Source: a phage
DNA length: 49,223 nucleotides
Sequence record: NC_103567.1
Direction: 5' to 3' (one strand)
The position numbers and the translations under genes are program-made. The notes beneath the pieces were generated by a model. It worked only from the letters and a program-made list of their open reading frames with translations, had not been told where the DNA came from and made no database searches. Of the stretch, positions 8,276 through 49,223 are shown piece after piece; the first letter of the stretch is position 1, and the number at the start of each line of letters is the position of its first letter.

Positions 8276-8505
8276 TGCTGATGTTCATTGCTGGTTTTGG
8301 TTTTTGTGCGATTATCTGTTTCTTTCTCTATCTTTGTTTTTCGTGGGGTGTGCAGCGTTGCGTAAAAGACAACGAATTAGTGATCGCCATTTACGAAAAC
8401 AAAGCTGATAAATGGAAGATTACTAAAAACTTTGAAAAGATTGCTGATGAAATTGCATTCCGTCGCAAGTTTGGCAAGCCTGGAAGCATCAAGTATATTG
8501 ATTGA
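8275..8505 (+). CDS. small membrane protein
   Basis: 76-aa ORF with N-terminal hydrophobic helix MLMFIAGFGFCAIICFFLYLCF. Confidence 0.55.
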   Translation: MLMFIAGFGFCAIICFFLYLCFSWGVQRCVKDNELVIAIYENKADKWKITKNFEKIADEIAFRRKFGKPGSIKYID

Positions 8506-8522
8506 TTCAACGAAAAAAAGAC

Positions 8523-8547
8523 AACCCGCCTTGCGCGGGTTTTTTTG
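8523..8547 (+). terminator. rho-independent terminator followed by a TATAAT-containing late-promoter-like sequence
   Basis: CCCGCCTTGCGCGGG hairpin plus T7 run; TATAAT about 20 bp downstream. Confidence 0.65.
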
Positions 8548-8593
8548 TGTCTGCAATTTAGCTATAATCACGCCTCAACAGGAGGATTTTATT

Positions 8594-9118
8594 ATGGCTA
8601 AAAAAACAGAAGCGCCAGCGGCGGAAAGTCTAAACTTTAAAAAGTTATGGAATAAGCGATATTCCGATCTGGTAGGTATTGAGATTGATAAACGCGCAAC
8701 GCTAACGCCGGAACAAGTCATGAACCTGATTGTTCAGTATTTTGAGTGGGCGGAGCTAAACGCCATTAAAGCAGGTGAGACTACATCCTTTCAGGGTCGA
8801 GTGTATCAGGATACGATTCACAAGCCGCGTATTTTTACATGGGAAGGGTTAAAGCTGTTTTGCGGTTTTTCAGGCACAGCACTAGCAAAGTGGAAACTTA
8901 AACCAGGCTATGATGTTGTTATTGAGTTTGCGGAATCGGTAATCAAAGAACAAAAATACCAGTTAGCTGCAAACGGAATGATTAACAGCACCATGATCGC
9001 AAAAGAGCTTGGCATTGATAAAGGCGACACGTTCAATATTAGCGCCAATGCTGAAACGGAAGTTAACACGGAAGAAGCAATGAAAAACGCCGTCGCAAGC
9101 GTTCTAAGTAAAATTTAA
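8594..9118 (+). CDS. terS: terminase small subunit (putative)
   Basis: About 174-aa ORF immediately upstream of the large terminase; CAGGAGGA RBS; position-based call. Confidence 0.6.
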   Translation: MAKKTEAPAAESLNFKKLWNKRYSDLVGIEIDKRATLTPEQVMNLIVQYFEWAELNAIKAGETTSFQGRVYQDTIHKPRIFTWEGLKLFCGFSGTALAKWKLKPGYDVVIEFAESVIKEQKYQLAANGMINSTMIAKELGIDKGDTFNISANAETEVNTEEAMKNAVASVLSKI

Positions 9119-42697: not shown

Positions 42698-42718
42698 GTT
42701 TTAACAAAAAGTGCTATT
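42698..42718 (-). promoter_or_regulatory. 21-bp motif, class I (reverse complement)
   Basis: GTTTTAACAAAAAGTGCTATT on the plus strand; an inverted repeat lies downstream in the direction of transcription. Confidence 0.6.
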
Positions 42719-43229: not shown

Positions 43230-44810
43230 TTACCCCATTAACGCCGGATTTACATAAACAAATTTACCAACGCTGCAAACATAATTCTTTTCTTCAAGCA
43301 TTGGCAATAATTGTTCCTCAATTCGTTTCATCACTCCTGATTGACCTGTAAACGGCTTAACCTTACGCGCACTTTCATAGATAGCTCTTGCATTGGTAAC
43401 GCCTTTATTTTGACGTGAGATCTTAATGATTATTTCAATTAACTTGCTCATTTCTGCATCATCTCCAGCGTGACCGGAAGCATTCGCGGCGTTGATATAT
43501 GTTTTGCTTAATTCGCTGAACATCACCAAAGCCTCTTGCATTGTCTCAACTTCAATTTCTCGCGACTTTTGCGGCGTACCGTTTGGATTAAACCAATTGC
43601 GGATCGTGTGCAATACTGACGCAATGCGGATCACTTGCTTATCCATTTTACCCAAAGCACCACGCAACATTGTATGTGAATATTTCCCGCCGTCTGCTAA
43701 ATCTGGCTCTAATTGCTGGCGAGCAATATTAAGAACACGCATTGCAGAACGTGACGGCTTCAATACCACATTTTGTTCAGTCATGATGTTATGAATCAAC
43801 TGGAAATATTGCGCCTTTAATTCTTTATCAACTGGCGTGTAATCAAGATCACCATTTTCATCAATAAATACACGCTCGCCTAACATTGTTTTTTCACGTA
43901 CAAGCAAGAAACGTTCACTAACACCGATACCACGCGCCCCTGCATCCATGATCCCTTTTATCGTTTCATCCTGGGCAATTACGCTCATGCAGCCCAACGC
44001 AACAAAACTCATATTGTTTTCAGAGTTGGCGCGAGCTATTGAAACGTGTCCGGCGTCCCATGCTTTTAGAACCAATTCGCTGTTAGTCTTGCGATCACTA
44101 TTAGCGTAAGTCAATCCGAGTAAGCTGTTGATGCTTGTTGCTTCATCGGAAATGACAGCAAAGTTACCCTGGCGATTGTTGATCTTTGCTAACCCTTCCG
44201 GCGTGGTGTCTGATACCGGAAAAACGATATCGCACATTTTTTCTAACTTTTCCTCTAATTCCTCCTTTTCCTCAAACAGCGCCGCTAACTCAGTGCCGGA
44301 ACGTTCAGCTTTCAATTCCTTTTCAACGCCTTTTAATTTCGCTGCGATCTTCTTTCGCTCTTTCTTGCGTTGTTCGTTGATGCGCTCAACTTCACAGACC
44401 ATTGGCGCAATAGCCAGGCTGTTGATTGCTGATTTACCAGTTGATGGCGGCTGACTGGTTACAACATAAAGCGCCGTTGGTTGTTCAGTGCCGTGGTACT
44501 CAACTTGGAAGCGTCCAACCATAGCGGCGGAAACGCAACCAATGAAATGCATATAGGCCGATGATTCAGGAAATTGAACAGATTGCGCAATGCTACGTGA
44601 CAGTTTACCCACAACATCAACATCATTACCCAAAGAGATCACAGGATAGCGGTCATTAGCGCCGTTGATATCCTTTACAGGTTCCCAAAAGCTGGACGAT
44701 TGGCGGTAGCCGTTAGACTGAATAGCAACGCGAAGCGGCGATGTTCCCTGCGATTCTGCAATGGCTATAACTTGTTGAGGTGTCAATTTGTTGGTGTCAA
44801 AGTCAAACAT
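43230..44810 (-). CDS. P-loop NTPase, possibly a replicative-helicase or primase-associated ATPase
   Basis: 526 aa; Walker A-like SQPPSTGKSA, charged coiled-coil stretch, Walker B-like FAVISDE; own motif-type promoter. Confidence 0.55.
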   Translation of the reverse strand: MFDFDTNKLTPQQVIAIAESQGTSPLRVAIQSNGYRQSSSFWEPVKDINGANDRYPVISLGNDVDVVGKLSRSIAQSVQFPESSAYMHFIGCVSAAMVGRFQVEYHGTEQPTALYVVTSQPPSTGKSAINSLAIAPMVCEVERINEQRKKERKKIAAKLKGVEKELKAERSGTELAALFEEKEELEEKLEKMCDIVFPVSDTTPEGLAKINNRQGNFAVISDEATSINSLLGLTYANSDRKTNSELVLKAWDAGHVSIARANSENNMSFVALGCMSVIAQDETIKGIMDAGARGIGVSERFLLVREKTMLGERVFIDENGDLDYTPVDKELKAQYFQLIHNIMTEQNVVLKPSRSAMRVLNIARQQLEPDLADGGKYSHTMLRGALGKMDKQVIRIASVLHTIRNWFNPNGTPQKSREIEVETMQEALVMFSELSKTYINAANASGHAGDDAEMSKLIEIIIKISRQNKGVTNARAIYESARKVKPFTGQSGVMKRIEEQLLPMLEEKNYVCSVGKFVYVNPALMG

Positions 44811-44861
44811 CTAAAAATCTCCTTCTTGTTGCCGCTAATTATAACGGCAACATTCTACAGC

Positions 44862-44882
44862 CTTTTAGCAATTCGTGCTATT
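44862..44882 (-). promoter_or_regulatory. 21-bp motif, class II (reverse complement)
   Basis: CTTTTAGCAATTCGTGCTATT on the plus strand upstream of the 526-aa gene. Confidence 0.6.
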
Positions 44883-45126
44883 TGATCGGCTCAACCCTGG
44901 CTAATAACCTTCCATCTATAATGCTATGACATTCAAGAGTTTTAGGATCGAATGCAAGCGAACGATGGAACGTATGACCAATCAGCAAATATGAATGCTT
45001 ATCCCTGATGCGATAGACCGTTTCACCTTCCTTTAATGACGATATCGCACTAAAAACAACCTTGTAACGATATTTTTGCATAGCCTCAGAACGGTGAGGC
45101 GTATAGTCTTTTTCTGGTAAACTCAT
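44878..45126 (-). CDS. hypothetical protein
   Basis: 82-aa ORF overlapping the upstream gene stop. Confidence 0.5.
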   Translation of the reverse strand: MSLPEKDYTPHRSEAMQKYRYKVVFSAISSLKEGETVYRIRDKHSYLLIGHTFHRSLAFDPKTLECHSIIDGRLLARVEPIK

Positions 45127-45485
45127 GAGTATTTGGCCTCAAACAGATAAGCACCGCCAGCGGCTGAAAATCCAACTTCTTCACGATACAGCGTGAAACG
45201 GTCGCCGTTTTCGTCGAACACGTATCCAGCAACAGCACCTAACACGCGGCCTTGTTCGATCTGGTAACGCTTATCGGCTTTGAAAGTTTTCTTGATCTGC
45301 ATGGAGTGGTTTACCCATGTGCATTTAATGGTTTTGGTCTTAACATTTCGGAATGTTAATCCGGTTAAGTTGGCGTGAATCCATTTCCCATCTAACTTAA
45401 CGAAAGTATCATCATTTTCGTCTACCCGCGCTTTGTATAGGCGGTTATCAGATCCGATAAGTTTGATTGATTTGAATTTAGCCAT
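45123..45485 (-). CDS. hypothetical protein
   Basis: 120-aa ORF; AAAGGAGA RBS on the minus strand; motif copy upstream. Confidence 0.6.
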   Translation of the reverse strand: MAKFKSIKLIGSDNRLYKARVDENDDTFVKLDGKWIHANLTGLTFRNVKTKTIKCTWVNHSMQIKKTFKADKRYQIEQGRVLGAVAGYVFDENGDRFTLYREEVGFSAAGGAYLFEAKYS

Positions 45486-45541
45486 TTGATTTATCTCCTT
45501 TTGTTTTCGTTGAAAGCATTATGCCGGATACGTGATCCGGC

Positions 45542-45562
45542 GTTTTAACAAAAAGTGCTATT
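45542..45562 (-). promoter_or_regulatory. 21-bp motif, class I (reverse complement)
   Basis: GTTTTAACAAAAAGTGCTATT on the plus strand. Confidence 0.6.
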
Positions 45563-46253
45563 TCTGATTTGCCAGGCATACAGCAAGCGCAAAGCCGCGC
45601 GGAGTGAGTGAGCGGATCAGCTTTGTTCGCTTAGACTTGCCGCCGAGCTTTTGCCAGCCTGGATTGTTGTTCCCTGTTTGCAATACTGCGTTTGTATCCG
45701 GCATTACAAAGCCGTTACCCGTCCAAAGACAAGTTTTTTTGGTGTACGCATCGCGAGCGGGAATGATTTCAGGAAAGTGAGGATGTTTATCATCTTCCGG
45801 CAACAGACCTCCAAACGCGCAAGGATGAAAGATAAAATCAGGTTGCCGCCACATTGACGACAGAACACTAACAGGATTCTCAATCATGTATGGAACGTTA
45901 AACCGATCCGCAATATTGGCAGCAATCTTTGCCGTTTCAACCGCCTTTTTCTGGAAGTCTGGATCACGTTCACGCTTTGCTGCAAAGTGACGCGATCCGC
46001 TAACAGCTAAATCAGTGCATGGAGGGAATGCAATAATAAAATCTGGAGTGCCAAAGACGCGCATCATTGCGTTATGCTGGAATGATAATCCGATCCACTC
46101 ATTCAAATAAACTATGTTGGGATGAGTCACGCGCACTGATTGGTAATCACCATGATCAGCACCGTCGAAATTAAAGCACAGCACTTTGTGACCACGTTCA
46201 GCCCACGGCAACGCAGCATAACCAGAACCATCAAATAGTGAGAAAATAAGCAT
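45558..46253 (-). CDS. truncated C5-cytosine-methyltransferase-like protein (motifs I, IV, VI present; no recognisable target-recognition domain)
   Basis: 231 aa; SLFDGSGYA (motif I FxGxG-like), FPPCTDLAVSG (motif IV, catalytic Pro-Cys), MIENPVS (motif VI ENV-like), spaced as in C5-MTases. Confidence 0.5.
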   Translation of the reverse strand: MLIFSLFDGSGYAALPWAERGHKVLCFNFDGADHGDYQSVRVTHPNIVYLNEWIGLSFQHNAMMRVFGTPDFIIAFPPCTDLAVSGSRHFAAKRERDPDFQKKAVETAKIAANIADRFNVPYMIENPVSVLSSMWRQPDFIFHPCAFGGLLPEDDKHPHFPEIIPARDAYTKKTCLWTGNGFVMPDTNAVLQTGNNNPGWQKLGGKSKRTKLIRSLTPRGFALAVCLANQK

Positions 46254-46361
46254 GTTTAAATCCTTTCTGTATTACCTTGCAAGGCATTTTGTTTGTAGGT
46301 GTGACAATCGTATTAGTTACGGCCTGAAATCGCGACATAATGCGAAACAGGCCTCTATTTT

Positions 46362-46439
46362 TTACTTACAGAATGGGCATGTTGTTTTATCCCCGCTTCC
46401 GCCGTGTTTTGGACAGCAAATTTTTTCGATAGGTGTCAT
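46362..46439 (-). CDS. 25-aa zinc-ribbon-like micropeptide
   Basis: AAGGAG RBS overlapping the upstream stop; hand translation MTPIEKICCPKHGGSGDKTTCPFCK; coordinates approximate. Confidence 0.35.
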   Translation of the reverse strand: MTPIEKICCPKHGGSGDKTTCPFCK

Positions 46440-46451
46440 TTTAAATACTCC

Positions 46452-46694
46452 TTAGAATGGGAAACAACGCTTGCAAGATGGATCGAAGTTACAACCGCAA
46501 TCATTGATTATTGCGTTAGGATCAGCAAGCATCACGCTACTTTCTTGATCCATATCCATAGCGCCTAATGCGTCATCAAGCGTTATTTCAAGATAGGCAA
46601 CTTTAAGCGCCCATTCCTTGTTGAGTCCAGCCGCCTCCGCTTCATGTAGGCGAGCAAAGAAAGCATCTTGAACCATATCAACCCCACTTCTCAA
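46452..46694 (-). CDS. hypothetical protein with C-terminal Cys cluster
   Basis: 80-aa ORF ending CGCNFDPSCKRCFPF; overlaps the upstream gene. Confidence 0.5.
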   Translation of the reverse strand: MRSGVDMVQDAFFARLHEAEAAGLNKEWALKVAYLEITLDDALGAMDMDQESSVMLADPNAIINDCGCNFDPSCKRCFPF

Positions 46695-46899
46695 TAAACA
46701 TGCTCATTTCGTCAATCATCGCGTAAGCATCGCTTTCAGTCATGCGACGTATTCTTCCGCCTGGGTGTTCGCCAACAGCGTAACCAGTTTTTACGCGGGT
46801 AATCGTTAACTGATGGAATCCAGAATCGCGATCCATTTTCAAAACTACTTTCCCGTGAGCTTTGACAATGTTCATGATGGATTCAGTTTTCAGTTTCAT
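46678..46899 (-). CDS. hypothetical protein
   Basis: 73-aa ORF; GGAGAA RBS on the minus strand; motif copy upstream. Confidence 0.55.
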   Translation of the reverse strand: MKLKTESIMNIVKAHGKVVLKMDRDSGFHQLTITRVKTGYAVGEHPGGRIRRMTESDAYAMIDEMSMFIEKWG

Positions 46900-46953
46900 T
46901 TTTGATTCTCCATTTTGTTTGTGTGAAAGTATGATACCAGTCAGAGCGATATC

Positions 46954-46975
46954 GTTTTTAGCAATTCGTGCTGTT
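46954..46975 (-). promoter_or_regulatory. 21-bp motif, class II variant (reverse complement)
   Basis: GTTTTTAGCAATTCGTGCTGTT on the plus strand. Confidence 0.5.
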
Positions 46976-47121
46976 TACGGCGATAAACGGATAGCCTGTT
47001 AAATCTGCATTTCTATAACGTGCAGACCTAACCCAACAGCCTCCTTTGCTCATAATTAAAGCGTTTTTATGACGCAGGTTCACGCGGTAAATTCTTCCGG
47101 TTTTTATATTTTTGAAGTAGG

Positions 47122-47367
47122 TCATAATTTAACCTCATGATATTCTATGAATTCTTGCACATATGCGCATTCGCGCGGCGACTCTTGGCCTTTTAGCACT
47201 TCACAGCCACTATTAAACAGATAGCAGTGCTGGCAAAGGTTGCCGCCTACGTTTTCCTCAGCGATCTGAATTCCGGTACACAAGCCGCCGCCAAACCTAT
47301 GAACGAAATGATAAGCGGAACACCTGCAATTAATTTGCCTACGCTTTCTTTTTGCCGTGGTTTTCAT
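47122..47367 (-). CDS. hypothetical Cys-rich protein (uncertain)
   Basis: 81-aa ORF with 8 Cys; overlaps the 3-prime end of the HNH gene by about 29 nt. Confidence 0.35.
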   Translation of the reverse strand: MKTTAKRKRRQINCRCSAYHFVHRFGGGLCTGIQIAEENVGGNLCQHCYLFNSGCEVLKGQESPRECAYVQEFIEYHEVKL

Positions 47368-47851
47368 GAAAACCCCTGTTTATTTTTTCTCTCTCAATAG
47401 CCATGCTAGCTAATTCAGGAGAATCAAAAAGACCAATATGGATTTCTTTTCCTTCTACTTTTAATCTTGCTCTCCATTTTTTAGCTACGGAATGCCACGA
47501 AACACCGTTAAACCCTGATTTATTTGCTTTGCAATATGATTGATTTTTACCGTTTTCATTTGCACTAACAAGGCGTAGGTTTTCTATCCTGTTATCAATT
47601 CTGTCGTGGTTTATATGATCAATCTGCATTCCTTCTGGAATTTTGCCATTATGCATTTCCCAAACGATTCGATGCGCAAGATAACTTTTATCATTCAATG
47701 TTATCTCTATGTATCCATCATTTCTAATGCTTCCTGCAACTTTTCCAGCCCACTTTTTATTCCATGCAGAATCTCTATATGATCTTATGTTTGTGCGCGG
47801 CTTTCTTATAAGATTACCGCAATCATATATAAAAAAGTCGTGCCAATTCAT
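47339..47851 (-). CDS. HNH homing endonuclease with AP2-like DNA-binding domain
   Basis: 170 aa; YLAHRIVWEMHNG...DHINHDRIDNRIENLRLVSANEN is an HNH motif; C-terminal FNGVSWHSVAKKWRARLKVEGKEIHIGLF looks like an AP2 domain. Confidence 0.75.
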   Translation of the reverse strand: MNWHDFFIYDCGNLIRKPRTNIRSYRDSAWNKKWAGKVAGSIRNDGYIEITLNDKSYLAHRIVWEMHNGKIPEGMQIDHINHDRIDNRIENLRLVSANENGKNQSYCKANKSGFNGVSWHSVAKKWRARLKVEGKEIHIGLFDSPELASMAIEREKINRGFHENHGKKKA

Positions 47852-47905
47852 TTTAAATTCTCCGGTTCGTTTCGATGAATGTATTATGCCAAAACAAACC
47901 GGATC

Positions 47906-47926
47906 GCTTTTAACAAAAAGTGCTAT
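47906..47926 (-). promoter_or_regulatory. 21-bp motif, class I (reverse complement)
   Basis: CTTTTAACAAAAAGTGCTATT on the plus strand upstream of the HNH gene. Confidence 0.6.
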
Positions 47927-48027
47927 TTAATTAAAATACGAATACCTTTTCGCACGCTTTCCGTCGCCTCCGTAATGGTCATTAGCAACAGCAAGAATCC
48001 AAGCGTTAGGAATAAAAAATAGCTCCA

Positions 48028-48222
48028 TCAATCACTCTCCATGACAATTACAGGCTCAAGGCGCTCAAGCACCACTTTGAAATCGGAGTAAAAAGTAGGG
48101 CGACGTTTTGTTAATTCCTCATATGTATCAGTTGCCAGGCAAGCGCGATCACCTTCATAGCACACAACTCGCTTACCATTTGCGCGACTGATTGCAACGA
48201 CGCGATAAGTATTATTGATCAT
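48028..48222 (-). CDS. hypothetical protein
   Basis: 64-aa ORF overlapping the upstream gene stop. Confidence 0.5.
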   Translation of the reverse strand: MINNTYRVVAISRANGKRVVCYEGDRACLATDTYEELTKRRPTFYSDFKVVLERLEPVIVMESD

Positions 48223-48455
48223 TTCATCACCTCAATTGAATAAATACTTTCAACGCCTGGCGCGTATAACCGCTTTCCATCTTCAGTTATGCAAAGACAA
48301 AGGGCAAGGCCGCGATTGTCTGAAATATGCAAGTCATTTTGTCTATCCATCAAAATTTCATATTCGCGATCTTCATCAAAGCGCCAAACTCTTAACATGC
48401 ACTTTCCAGATGATTTAACTTTTACTTTCTTTCCGATGAAATTTAAACGACTCAT
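48219..48455 (-). CDS. hypothetical protein
   Basis: 78-aa ORF overlapping neighbours in operon-like packing. Confidence 0.5.
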   Translation of the reverse strand: MSRLNFIGKKVKVKSSGKCMLRVWRFDEDREYEILMDRQNDLHISDNRGLALCLCITEDGKRLYAPGVESIYSIEVMK

Positions 48456-48670
48456 TGTGCAGCCTCCACAGTTTCAAATACGGTATTGAATGCCAGAAGT
48501 TTAAATTTCTTGCCTGGCTCAACAACCTGAATATTCCAGGTAATGCCGCCGTGATATGCAACCATATCATCAATATCAACAGTAACCTCAGTACCTTTTT
48601 TGAACAATCCTTTTTCGTGGCTCGCATCGCGTACAGTAACCACAGTTTCGAATTGAGTTTGAATTTCCAT
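48452..48670 (-). CDS. hypothetical protein
   Basis: 72-aa ORF; AGGAG RBS on the minus strand; motif copy upstream. Confidence 0.6.
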   Translation of the reverse strand: MEIQTQFETVVTVRDASHEKGLFKKGTEVTVDIDDMVAYHGGITWNIQVVEPGKKFKLLAFNTVFETVEAAQ

Positions 48671-48724
48671 CGTTAATCTCCTGATTGGTTTCGATGGGGC
48701 AACTATATCAAGATACCCCGATCC

Positions 48725-48746
48725 TTTTTTAGCAATTCGTGCTATT
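48725..48746 (-). promoter_or_regulatory. 21-bp motif, class II (reverse complement)
   Basis: TTTTTTAGCAATTCGTGCTATT on the plus strand. Confidence 0.6.
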
Positions 48747-49029
48747 AGCCAAACGCTTTAATTTCGAAATCTTCTTCTGCCTGATTAGCAACCGCCGTGA
48801 ACATTTGCTCAAGAGTTTCAAAGCCGAAATGTTTAGCGATCTCATAAGCCGCTTTACCTTCCGTCTGCATGTTTAGCGCTTCGCAATAGTGCATTTCCAG
48901 ATTGTTCAGGTATTTGTTGCCAGTTGGGATTGCTGCGTCGATTTTGTCCCACACGATCCAAAAGTTTGTTTTGTCAGCCGCTGCGAGTACAAAGTTTGTC
49001 TTGTCTACTGCAATCACTAAGTTTTCCAT
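48745..49029 (-). CDS. hypothetical protein with internal short duplication
   Basis: ORF track 48745-49065; likely start at internal ATG 49029 with GAGGA RBS; contains VIAVDKTNFVLAAADKTNFWIVW. Confidence 0.55.
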   Translation of the reverse strand: MENLVIAVDKTNFVLAAADKTNFWIVWDKIDAAIPTGNKYLNNLEMHYCEALNMQTEGKAAYEIAKHFGFETLEQMFTAVANQAEEDFEIKAFG

Positions 49030-49062
49030 CGTGTAATCCTCAGTTCGTTTCGTTGAGGTAAT

Positions 49063-49080
49063 CATAGCAATTCGTGACTG
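49063..49080 (-). promoter_or_regulatory. 21-bp motif, degenerate class II copy, in tandem with the next copy
   Basis: CATAGCAATTCGTGACTG on the plus strand. Confidence 0.4.
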
Positions 49081-49084
49081 ATTG

Positions 49085-49105
49085 GTTTTAACAAAAAGTG
49101 CTATT
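49085..49105 (-). promoter_or_regulatory. 21-bp motif, class I (reverse complement)
   Basis: GTTTTAACAAAAAGTGCTATT on the plus strand; outermost leftward promoter candidate. Confidence 0.6.
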
Positions 49106-49223
49106 CATGCAGTATCAGCAAAATTACCAACGTTCATCTTAACGAACAATCAGTTCGACGTATCGACCAGGCTCATGATCCTGTTATGTGATCGTTATAT
49201 GATCAGATGATGATTGATGTGTG

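Follow-up and report, generated by a model that had tools for sequence, protein, structure and literature searches.

Free-standing homing endonuclease genes (HEGs) are often promoter-less cassettes whose products cleave a conserved gene next to them, with co-conversion of the flanking DNA, and many of the seg and mob genes of T4 are cassettes of this promoter-less kind (PMC2988022). The free-standing HNH enzymes of the T4 type include MobE, while Hef and SegH replace mobE and mobC in relatives of T4 (PMC2790892, PMC2988022, Sandegren et al. 2005); cleavage and homing have been demonstrated for the enzymes of this type, and their nrd targets often lie hundreds of bp away. Another established homing-endonuclease family is that of the HNH-AP2 proteins (Magnani et al. 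2004, cited in PMC10448857), in which an N-terminal I-HmuI-like HNH_3 domain is joined to a C-terminal AP2 domain. The HNH_3+AP2 proteins of T1-like, T4-like (RB49) and Felix O1-like phages are likewise small free-standing ORFs of sporadic occurrence. In Skunavirus, a siphophage genus as is Tlsvirus, but one with a lactococcal host and from another phage family, I-HmuI-like HNH endonucleases vary in number and location and have been linked to marker exclusion, which was tested there, and to genome diversification (PMC12724721).

The locus described here belongs to a 49,223-nt stretch of phage DNA (sequence record NC_103567.1; hereafter the window), which corresponds to Escherichia phage U136B and was assigned by megablast to Tlsvirus (Drexlerviridae, Tempevirinae), and whose genome had been opened for synteny with Tls (PMC8104045). 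ORF calling places an ATG-initiated gene of 170 aa on the minus strand (47339-47851), between the intact genes of 64 and 33 aa and a Cys-rich gene, and its product is identical to QRV71281.1, "putative HNH endonuclease [Escherichia phage U136B]", and matches phrog_99 (HNH endonuclease; 5.9e-61) in the PHROG search. Given this identity, and the annotation of the Tls ortholog as endZ, the gene had already been annotated at the family level. The Cys-rich ORF (47122-47367, minus strand; 81 aa, 7 Cys; phrog_5016) overlaps the 3' end of the HNH ORF by 29 nt, and it is followed by an ATGA-coupled ORF of 55 aa (46958-47125, minus strand; phrog_16768), the own ATG of which overlaps the stop of the Cys-rich ORF, so that all three share the same orientation. 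As both small ORFs are present and annotated in every relative examined and belong to PHROG families, albeit families of unknown function, they are to be regarded as real genes. The earlier note on this DNA had described the 170-aa ORF with its HNH motif and the overlapping 81-aa Cys-rich ORF as they are found here, and it had also suspected the coupled ORF, which exists, although it comprises 55 aa at 46958-47125 rather than about 54 codons from 46961. No Rfam match, group I introns included, was obtained in 45000-49223, on which basis an intron or another RNA element at the locus was rejected, and no second HNH-family gene was found elsewhere in the window. The HNH gene is free-standing, inside neither an intron nor an intein.

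The catalytic domain is recognized directly in the protein, by a Pfam HNH_3 match of 81 bits (E 4.7e-23; cutoff 24.8) over residues 57-101, which corresponds to 47549-47683 on the minus strand, and the same domain was matched by 62 of the 62 aligned homologs. Across this alignment, little or no variation is seen at D78, H79, N87, N91, N100 and N103, with D78-H79, N87 and N91 located within the HNH_3 core and N100 and N103 thereafter, which points to an intact HNH (beta-beta-alpha-metal) catalytic motif in the U136B protein. The C-terminal part is less evident from the U136B sequence alone, where Pfam AP2 reached 19.3 bits over residues 113-151, below the cutoff of 33.3 bits; AP2 was matched, however, by 44 of the 62 homologs (best E 2.8e-9). 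In a wider search, 1,296 homologs of the HNH protein were retrieved at E values of up to 1e-5, mainly on phage-sized contigs of 45-50 kb, and many of them had been pre-annotated as HNH_3+AP2.

An AlphaFold (AF2) model made from the alignment of 62 homologs, with a mean pLDDT of 86.6, agrees with this domain organization. The C-terminal region was modelled as three strands and a helix (117-120, 125-132 and 135-142, followed by 145-158), and in Foldseek it superposes on the AP2 domains of AtERF1, TEM1 and WRI1 (WRINKLED1) at 1.6-1.9 A with a probability of approximately 1.0 (matches 1gcc, 7et5 and 7wq5). An AP2-type DNA-binding domain is thus predicted C-terminal to the nuclease, at residues ~113-158 (47378-47515, minus strand), as had been supposed beforehand, from the homologs and the model together with the sub-threshold Pfam match. 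The best PDB match of the whole model is I-HmuI of the Bacillus phage SPO1 (1u3e; E 8.6e-5, probability 1.00), with which the model shares the N-terminal beta-hairpin and the HNH core, while a sequence-only search of the PDB with phmmer returned no significant match (I-HmuI at E 0.36). I-HmuI differs in being encoded by an intron and in having a C-terminal DNA-binding module of the helix-turn-helix type instead of AP2. As I-HmuI is a strand-specific nicking enzyme, the U136B enzyme may also nick its substrate rather than make double-strand breaks.

Considered as a whole, the U136B gene is a typical member of a well-known class of elements, and both the gene and its family were annotated before. 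It may be set apart from its relatives in the HNH-AP2 family by the end of its ORF, which overlaps the downstream gene and re-initiates it, and by the sub-threshold score of its AP2 domain. As in the HEGs of the T4 type, the HNH gene is an intergenic cassette in the same orientation as its neighbours, which uses a promoter of the host genome and is swapped at a single slot, and its putative target would lie in a neighbouring conserved gene, with co-conversion of the flanking markers. On the other hand, the putative target in U136B abuts the insertion, whereas the nrd targets are often distant, and the alternative occupants of the slot are not nucleases, unlike those of the T4-type slots.

The occupation of this slot was compared among the Tls-like phages, in which approximately 45 distinct genomes stand behind 60 matching records. 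Of these 60 related records, Tls and FSL SP-126 alone contain a copy of the HNH gene with more than 95% identity. An unrelated ORF of 93 aa (phrog_6147) fills the slot at 95% identity or more in at least 27 records, with diverged versions in others, an unrelated ORF of 87 aa is found in CF1, and a further unrelated ORF of 82 aa is found in UTK0006, UTK0007 and MBBL140, so that the three non-HNH types together account for at least 35 genomes. The genomes that carry the HNH gene are the window, Tls, SP-126, L057, L058 and the group L060-L062, and an empty site, where a 63-aa gene directly abuts the Cys-rich gene, occurs in L047-L049 and L059, which are more distant relatives. In L060-L062, an 89%-identical HNH gene was placed precisely after the stop of the 63-aa gene (TAA-TT-ATG), without the promoter spacer. 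The upstream spacer, with its promoter motif and RBS, and the Cys-rich gene are common to all of the aligned relatives, and the alignment places the swap of occupants exactly between the RBS and the following gene. The rest of the window yielded no displaced 93-, 87- or 82-aa ORF. Scans of IMG/VR with the HNH and the Cys-rich proteins yielded no close HNH-bearing genomes beyond Tls and SP-126, and a metagenome scan anchored on the Cys-rich gene recovered only two contigs, both of them lacking the HNH gene. In other phages (L057, L059), paralogs of the HNH-AP2 type occupy different sites within this early region, and SP-126, LL5 and CF1 have distant paralogs elsewhere.

To judge from these alleles, the HNH gene is sporadic and dispensable in the Tls-like phages, and the slot is a hotspot of gene turnover, with a polymorphism of presence and absence at a fixed locus that is bounded by conserved flanks and segregates among close relatives. 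A free-standing HNH-AP2 endonuclease gene that behaves as a mobile element at such a hotspot was the central proposal of the earlier note, and it is borne out by the domains, the fold match and the lack of an intron or Rfam RNA nearby, by the three unrelated ORFs or empty junctions that replace the gene in all but a few relatives, and by the lateral exchange described below. That note had called for a comparison with related phages and had named conservation of the gene throughout the relatives and a lack of empty sites as the pattern that would speak against it; the comparison revealed instead HNH-less alleles with conserved flanks, a gene restricted to Tls and FSL SP-126 among the close relatives, and empty junctions. 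The expectation of an empty-site alternative holds for the distant relatives, although the close ones present the replacement of one gene by another. The textbook configuration of homing differs in this respect, given that the close relatives hold a different gene and not an empty site.

The spacer upstream of the HNH gene (47852-47935, minus strand), which is conserved both in genomes with the gene and in those without it, contains the 20-mer AATAGCACTTTTTGTTAAAA at 47908-47927. This repeat was found by self-BLAST and pattern search, and it has 12 copies in the genome with two mismatches or fewer, against an expectation of 0.01. Every copy has the same layout, being oriented with the downstream genes and followed by a 22-nt spacer, a (C/T)ATAAT-like -10 box, an RBS and an ATG, and the copy upstream of the HNH gene has a -10-like CATAAT at 47883-47888 and the RBS GGAG at 47860-47863. 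A scan of 44000-49223 with the sigma-70 consensus did not call this promoter, and its hits were below the shuffle expectation. The motif is also present in the HNH-less ElisaCorrea, as well as in Tls and SP-126, and it is missing upstream of the gene in L060-L062, where the HNH gene directly follows the upstream gene. The 20-mer is therefore predicted to be a genome-wide promoter-type element that belongs to the flank of the slot and drives whichever gene occupies it. As the motif stands in the conserved flank, precedes non-nuclease occupants too and is absent in the L060-type arrangement, the HNH gene may be described as a promoter-less cassette that relies on the slot promoter; the motif that had been taken for the promoter of the nuclease itself is real, but it is a property of the slot.

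Public assemblies contain 20 distinct sequences in the 90% cluster, mainly on contigs of ~49-50 kb. The history of the HNH segment was traced from its identity profile and by a site-by-site comparison of informative positions between the window and 18 relatives. The HNH gene (47851-47368) is 99.2% identical to the window in both L058 and L057, and the first 72 nt of the Cys-rich ORF (47367-47296) are 100% identical in both, against only 84.4% and 83.6%, respectively, in the upstream 64-aa gene (48222-48028). Downstream, identity is 90.8% in L058 and 97.1% in L057 over the adjacent segment (47295-47122), and 90.7% and 88.9% further on (46957-46678), that is, the fall is immediate in L058 (to ~91%) and takes place beyond ~46958 in L057 (to ~89%). 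In the comparison with Tls and SP-126, the HNH gene has ~96% identity, the upstream 64-aa gene 83-84%, and the downstream segments 87-99%. The HNH-less ElisaCorrea and ZerotoHero present the reverse pattern, with flanks that are 98-100% identical to the window and a segment at 47295-46958 that is only 93.7-95.7% identical.

Upstream of ~47927, the variants of the window are those of the Sazh group, including a shared insertion of 100 nt, and downstream of ~46826 the window again matches this group, while in between it has non-Sazh variants common to Tls and SP-126, for example at 47143, 47149, 47196, 47200, 47245, 47249 and 47882. Given this pattern of variants, U136B is a Sazh-like backbone that laterally acquired a tract of about 1 kb (46900-47926), which includes the 55-aa ORF, with crossovers between 47882 and 47927 on the upstream side and between ~46921 and 46826 on the downstream side. 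On its upstream side the HNH gene is flanked by only 31-75 nt of imported DNA, and on its downstream side by ~0.45 kb, an asymmetry that fits a break located towards the Cys-rich gene. In every case the exchange takes in the first ~24 codons of the Cys-rich gene as well, and across this block identity reaches 99-100%, against 84-91% in the flanks of the backbones that carry it. The 93-aa occupant, examined as a control, diverges in step with the backbone (95.4% versus 96-98%, and 79.9% versus 85-92%), while the 82-aa cassette is mildly over-conserved between UTK0006 and UTK0007 (99.6% versus 94-97% in the flanks). The whole early region is a mosaic. These comparisons demonstrate that the HNH gene has been exchanged laterally, as a block, between diverged Tls-like backbones, with co-conversion of flanking DNA, but this comparative evidence does not prove the nuclease to be the cause, since mosaicism extends over the region and the over-conservation is shared, mildly, by the 82-aa cassette.

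One other feature that distinguishes the HNH block is a divergent patch in the Cys-rich gene, which directly adjoins the insertion and covers codons 5-22 (47302-47355, minus strand). In the HNH-less genomes, the 5' end of this gene is nearly invariant across all three types of occupant, reading ATGAAACGTAAGCGG(C/A)ATCAAGCAACGTGCCGCTGCCAGGCTTACGATTTTCCT and then CATAGG, and the only exceptions are LL5 and CF1, in codons 2-4. The window, Tls, SP-126, L057 and L058, which are the close HNH-bearing genomes, have GCAAAAAGAAAGCGTAGGCAAATTAATTGCAGGTGTTCCGCTTATCATTTCGTT and then CATAGG, with a single C-to-A change in SP-126. The two versions differ at 25 of 54 nt (~46%), and an identity of at least 95% resumes after CATAGG. 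An HNH-less allele compared with another genus has fewer differences (16 of 51), and the diverged L060 lineage has a rewritten patch of its own, which departs from the HNH-less allele at 23 of 54 nt. The patch also alters residues that are conserved in all other homologs, from AYDFPH to AYHFVH (D to H and P to V). The 81-aa allele of the Cys-rich protein occurs only in HNH-bearing genomes, and alleles of 77-78 aa occur in the HNH-less ones; neither the patch allele without the HNH gene nor the HNH gene without the patch was seen in this small sample. A look-up of the exact 81-aa allele returned only contigs of one run series (SRR232316xx), which are not independent, as the gene order at their locus is the same as that of the window.

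In the HNH-bearing genomes, the start codon of the Cys-rich gene lies inside the conserved GFHENHG codons of the HNH gene, and the position of the old ATG is GCA. The overlap of the two ORFs was considered as a constraint that might have forced the patch and was rejected, given that only the first ~10 Cys-rich codons overlap the HNH ORF and the divergence runs for 13 codons further. An origin of the patch as the allele of another known genus was also rejected, as the outgroup alleles (L047-L050) resemble the HNH-less version. The patch would fit a destroyed or immune target site beside the insertion of a homing endonuclease, and the Cys-rich gene would then be the probable target gene. It could otherwise be donor flank DNA brought in from a distant lineage that has not been sampled. 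A divergence of ~46% exceeds what the few substitutions needed for immunity would require.

Alleles of the HNH gene that have decayed or recombined are also found, and two or three truncated ones are known. The gene of L057 has a nonsense change (GGA to TGA) at codon 74, just ahead of the catalytic D-H; P0135 is a second version of 96 aa, on another contig; and in P0128 the gene is truncated to 119 aa, while P0136 is chimeric, its N-terminal module being of another kind. The truncated alleles sit on apparently complete phage contigs of ~47-51 kb. Such alleles may be counted as signs of a selfish life cycle.

We consider it fairly probable that the U136B gene encodes a functional, free-standing homing-type endonuclease, which cuts the HNH-less 5' end of the Cys-rich gene and is copied in by the subsequent repair, that is, a selfish homing-type gene in which an I-HmuI-like HNH nuclease was fused to an AP2 domain, its activity and homing being inferred. 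The gene lies directly upstream of a conserved Cys-rich early gene of the Tls-like phages, which it overlaps. In a mixed infection, the enzyme would bind, through its AP2 domain, to the DNA of an HNH-less phage at the start of the Cys-rich gene, where the sequence is nearly invariant, and it would nick or cleave this DNA at a predicted site within or near ATGAAACGTAAGCGGCATCAAGCAACGTGCCGCTGCCAGGCTTACGATTTTCCT. Repair by recombination from the HNH-bearing genome would then copy the HNH gene and the adjacent markers, as in intronless homing or marker exclusion, whereas the HNH-bearing genomes themselves would be immune because the stretch of ~54 nt has been rewritten. What the comparisons show is that a Sazh-like genome gained the HNH gene and ~0.45 kb of downstream flank, giving rise to U136B, in which the gene relies on the promoter and RBS that the slot already had and supplies a new start codon for the downstream Cys-rich gene. 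A stronger version of this proposal, in which the gene is an active device of competition between phages that targets the invariant first ~54 nt of the Cys-rich gene, and the patch is an immunity allele selected through repeated cycles of invasion and resistance, is conceivable, and we put it forward only tentatively. The HNH gene would then be hard to delete, as the Cys-rich gene now starts within its conserved C-terminal GFHENHG codons, and U136B and Tls would gain a measurable advantage of exclusion over HNH-less Tls-like phages in mixed infections or cocktails.

Ordinary homologous recombination at the conserved arms, that is, the promoter and the Cys-rich gene, could also move the HNH gene without any nuclease, and it is on this that an account of the gene as passive cargo depends. 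The gene would be an interchangeable accessory cassette, exchanged by recombination between the promoter motif and the Cys-rich gene, and the nuclease, which may be inactive or act elsewhere, would play no part in its own spread. Such an account would readily accommodate the four or more unrelated occupants with the same flanks, the gene-sized jumps of identity in a mosaic region, of which the over-conserved 82-aa cassette is an example, the portable homology offered by the repeated 20-mer, and the persistence of truncated alleles in apparently complete phage contigs. We nevertheless regard it as unlikely, given that the HNH cassette is the only one that reaches ~70 nt into the Cys-rich gene, always with the rewritten patch, that its contrast of identity (99-100% versus 84-91%) far exceeds that of the other occupants, and that the catalytic residues are conserved across a family of the classical homing type.

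A nuclease that is domesticated or beneficial, and thus kept by selection rather than by drive, is still less probable in our view, whether its role were that of a weapon against co-infecting relatives that goes beyond its own propagation, of degradation or nicking of the host DNA, or of a stimulus to recombination or amplification of neighbouring early genes. Its retention would be favoured by the provision of the start codon of a downstream conserved gene, and its predicted expression from an early-region promoter motif points in the same direction, as do HEGs that are reported in recent papers to help phages compete or to amplify anti-defence loci (PMC11620839, PMC13096335). Most of the close relatives, however, are isolated, viable phages that lack the gene, some of its alleles are truncated or interrupted by a nonsense codon, and no conserved partner gene travels with it. 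A packaging-associated HNH protein, similar to gp74 of HK97 and assisting the terminase in the cleavage of DNA, would be in line with the frequency of such proteins in siphophages that is indicated in PMC3592412 and PMC10448857, but this role is extremely improbable here. It was rejected on position and distribution, given that the nearest terminase-type gene (GP3_package, 8432-9118, plus strand) is ~9.8 kb away and on the other strand, and that the HNH gene has no counterpart in most relatives, its absence from viable phages being an effective refutation; the U136B protein, moreover, is of the HNH_3/I-HmuI type with AP2 and not a Zn-ribbon protein of PF01844.

What is added here to the annotation of a known gene is the polymorphism of the slot, the mosaic origin of this region of U136B, null alleles that occur in nature, and a 54-nt patch that is a candidate for target and immunity. 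U136B is a model phage for work on evolutionary trade-offs and phage therapy, and the present analysis suggests that it is recombinant and harbours a selfish nuclease that is probably active. This is useful for the design of crosses, cocktails and engineered derivatives, and the nuclease could bias the inheritance of markers when U136B co-infects a host with related TolC phages, LL5 among them. For the HNH-AP2 family, which has been little studied, the locus offers a compact natural system in which to test intronless homing, with a defined insertion point, a candidate target of ~54 nt, and alleles from nature that are putatively susceptible, putatively resistant or interrupted by a nonsense codon.

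In the variable patch of the Cys-rich gene (47302-47355), the version carried by genomes without the HNH-AP2 endonuclease gene has a GC content of 57%, against 40% for the version found with the HNH gene and 43% for the genome. The HNH-less patch contains the sequence TGCCGCTGCC, which is absent from the patch of the HNH-bearing genomes and which is similar to the GCC-box, i.e., the site bound by the AP2/ERF domains of plants. Judging from this resemblance, TGCCGCTGCC is a candidate recognition site for the AP2 domain, and is offered here as a lead.

A second variable slot, at 47927-48031, directly adjoins the promoter spacer on its upstream side. An ORF of 33/34 aa (phrog_32259), carried on a segment of approximately 100 nt, occupies this slot in the window, the Sazh group, CF1, and contig L057. 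It is missing from Tls, SP-126, and contig L058, and a 61-aa ORF takes its place in UTK0006, UTK0007, MBBL140, and contig L063. The junction between the Cys-rich and 55-aa genes is a third variable position within the same operon, and an extra 65-aa ORF lies between these genes in YSP2 (L041, 2622-2819) and GJL01 (L056). Further along, a segment of about 92 nt (46359-46450) that separates the 80/74-aa ORF from the dcm-like methyltransferase gene in the window is missing from SP-126, CF1, and UTK0007, and the annotated starts of dcm vary among the relatives (696 vs. 780 nt). The MBBL140 record (OR786094.1, "Streptococcus phage MBBL140") is itself a Tlsvirus, with mostly 96-100% identity to the Salmonella phage UTK0006 in the region compared (89-91% in two genes), and its host label, Streptococcus agalactiae, looks doubtful.

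The 20-mer AATAGCACTTTTTGTTAAAA occurs in 12 copies in the window, where 0.01 would be expected, on the plus strand at 1621, 3971, 6490, 30033, 33991, 35745, 38203, and 39527, and on the minus strand at 42699, 45543, 47908, and 49086, always in the orientation of the genes downstream. Each copy is followed by a fixed 22-nt spacer, often with an inverted repeat inside, a (C/T)ATAAT-like -10 element, an RBS, and an ATG. The distance from TTGTTA to the -10 is non-canonical, and a sigma-70 consensus scan of 44000-49223 did not pick up the copies of that region. The element may represent a class of promoters or regulator sites specific to the Tls-like phages.

Additional HNH_3 genes are present elsewhere in the same early region of other Tls-like contigs (L057, 1664-2137 and 5512-6015; L059, 2501-3016), one of them an HNH-AP2 paralog of 54% identity, with the 74-aa gene on one side and dcm on the other. 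The protein P0136, from a 1680-bp ENA contig, is a chimeric HNH, in which an unrelated N-terminal module of about 50 aa precedes 113 C-terminal residues that differ from the window's protein by one change (E73 to D), and this chimeric structure suggests that modules are shuffled within the family. The early region of the Tls-like phages is a multi-site landing zone for nucleases of this family.
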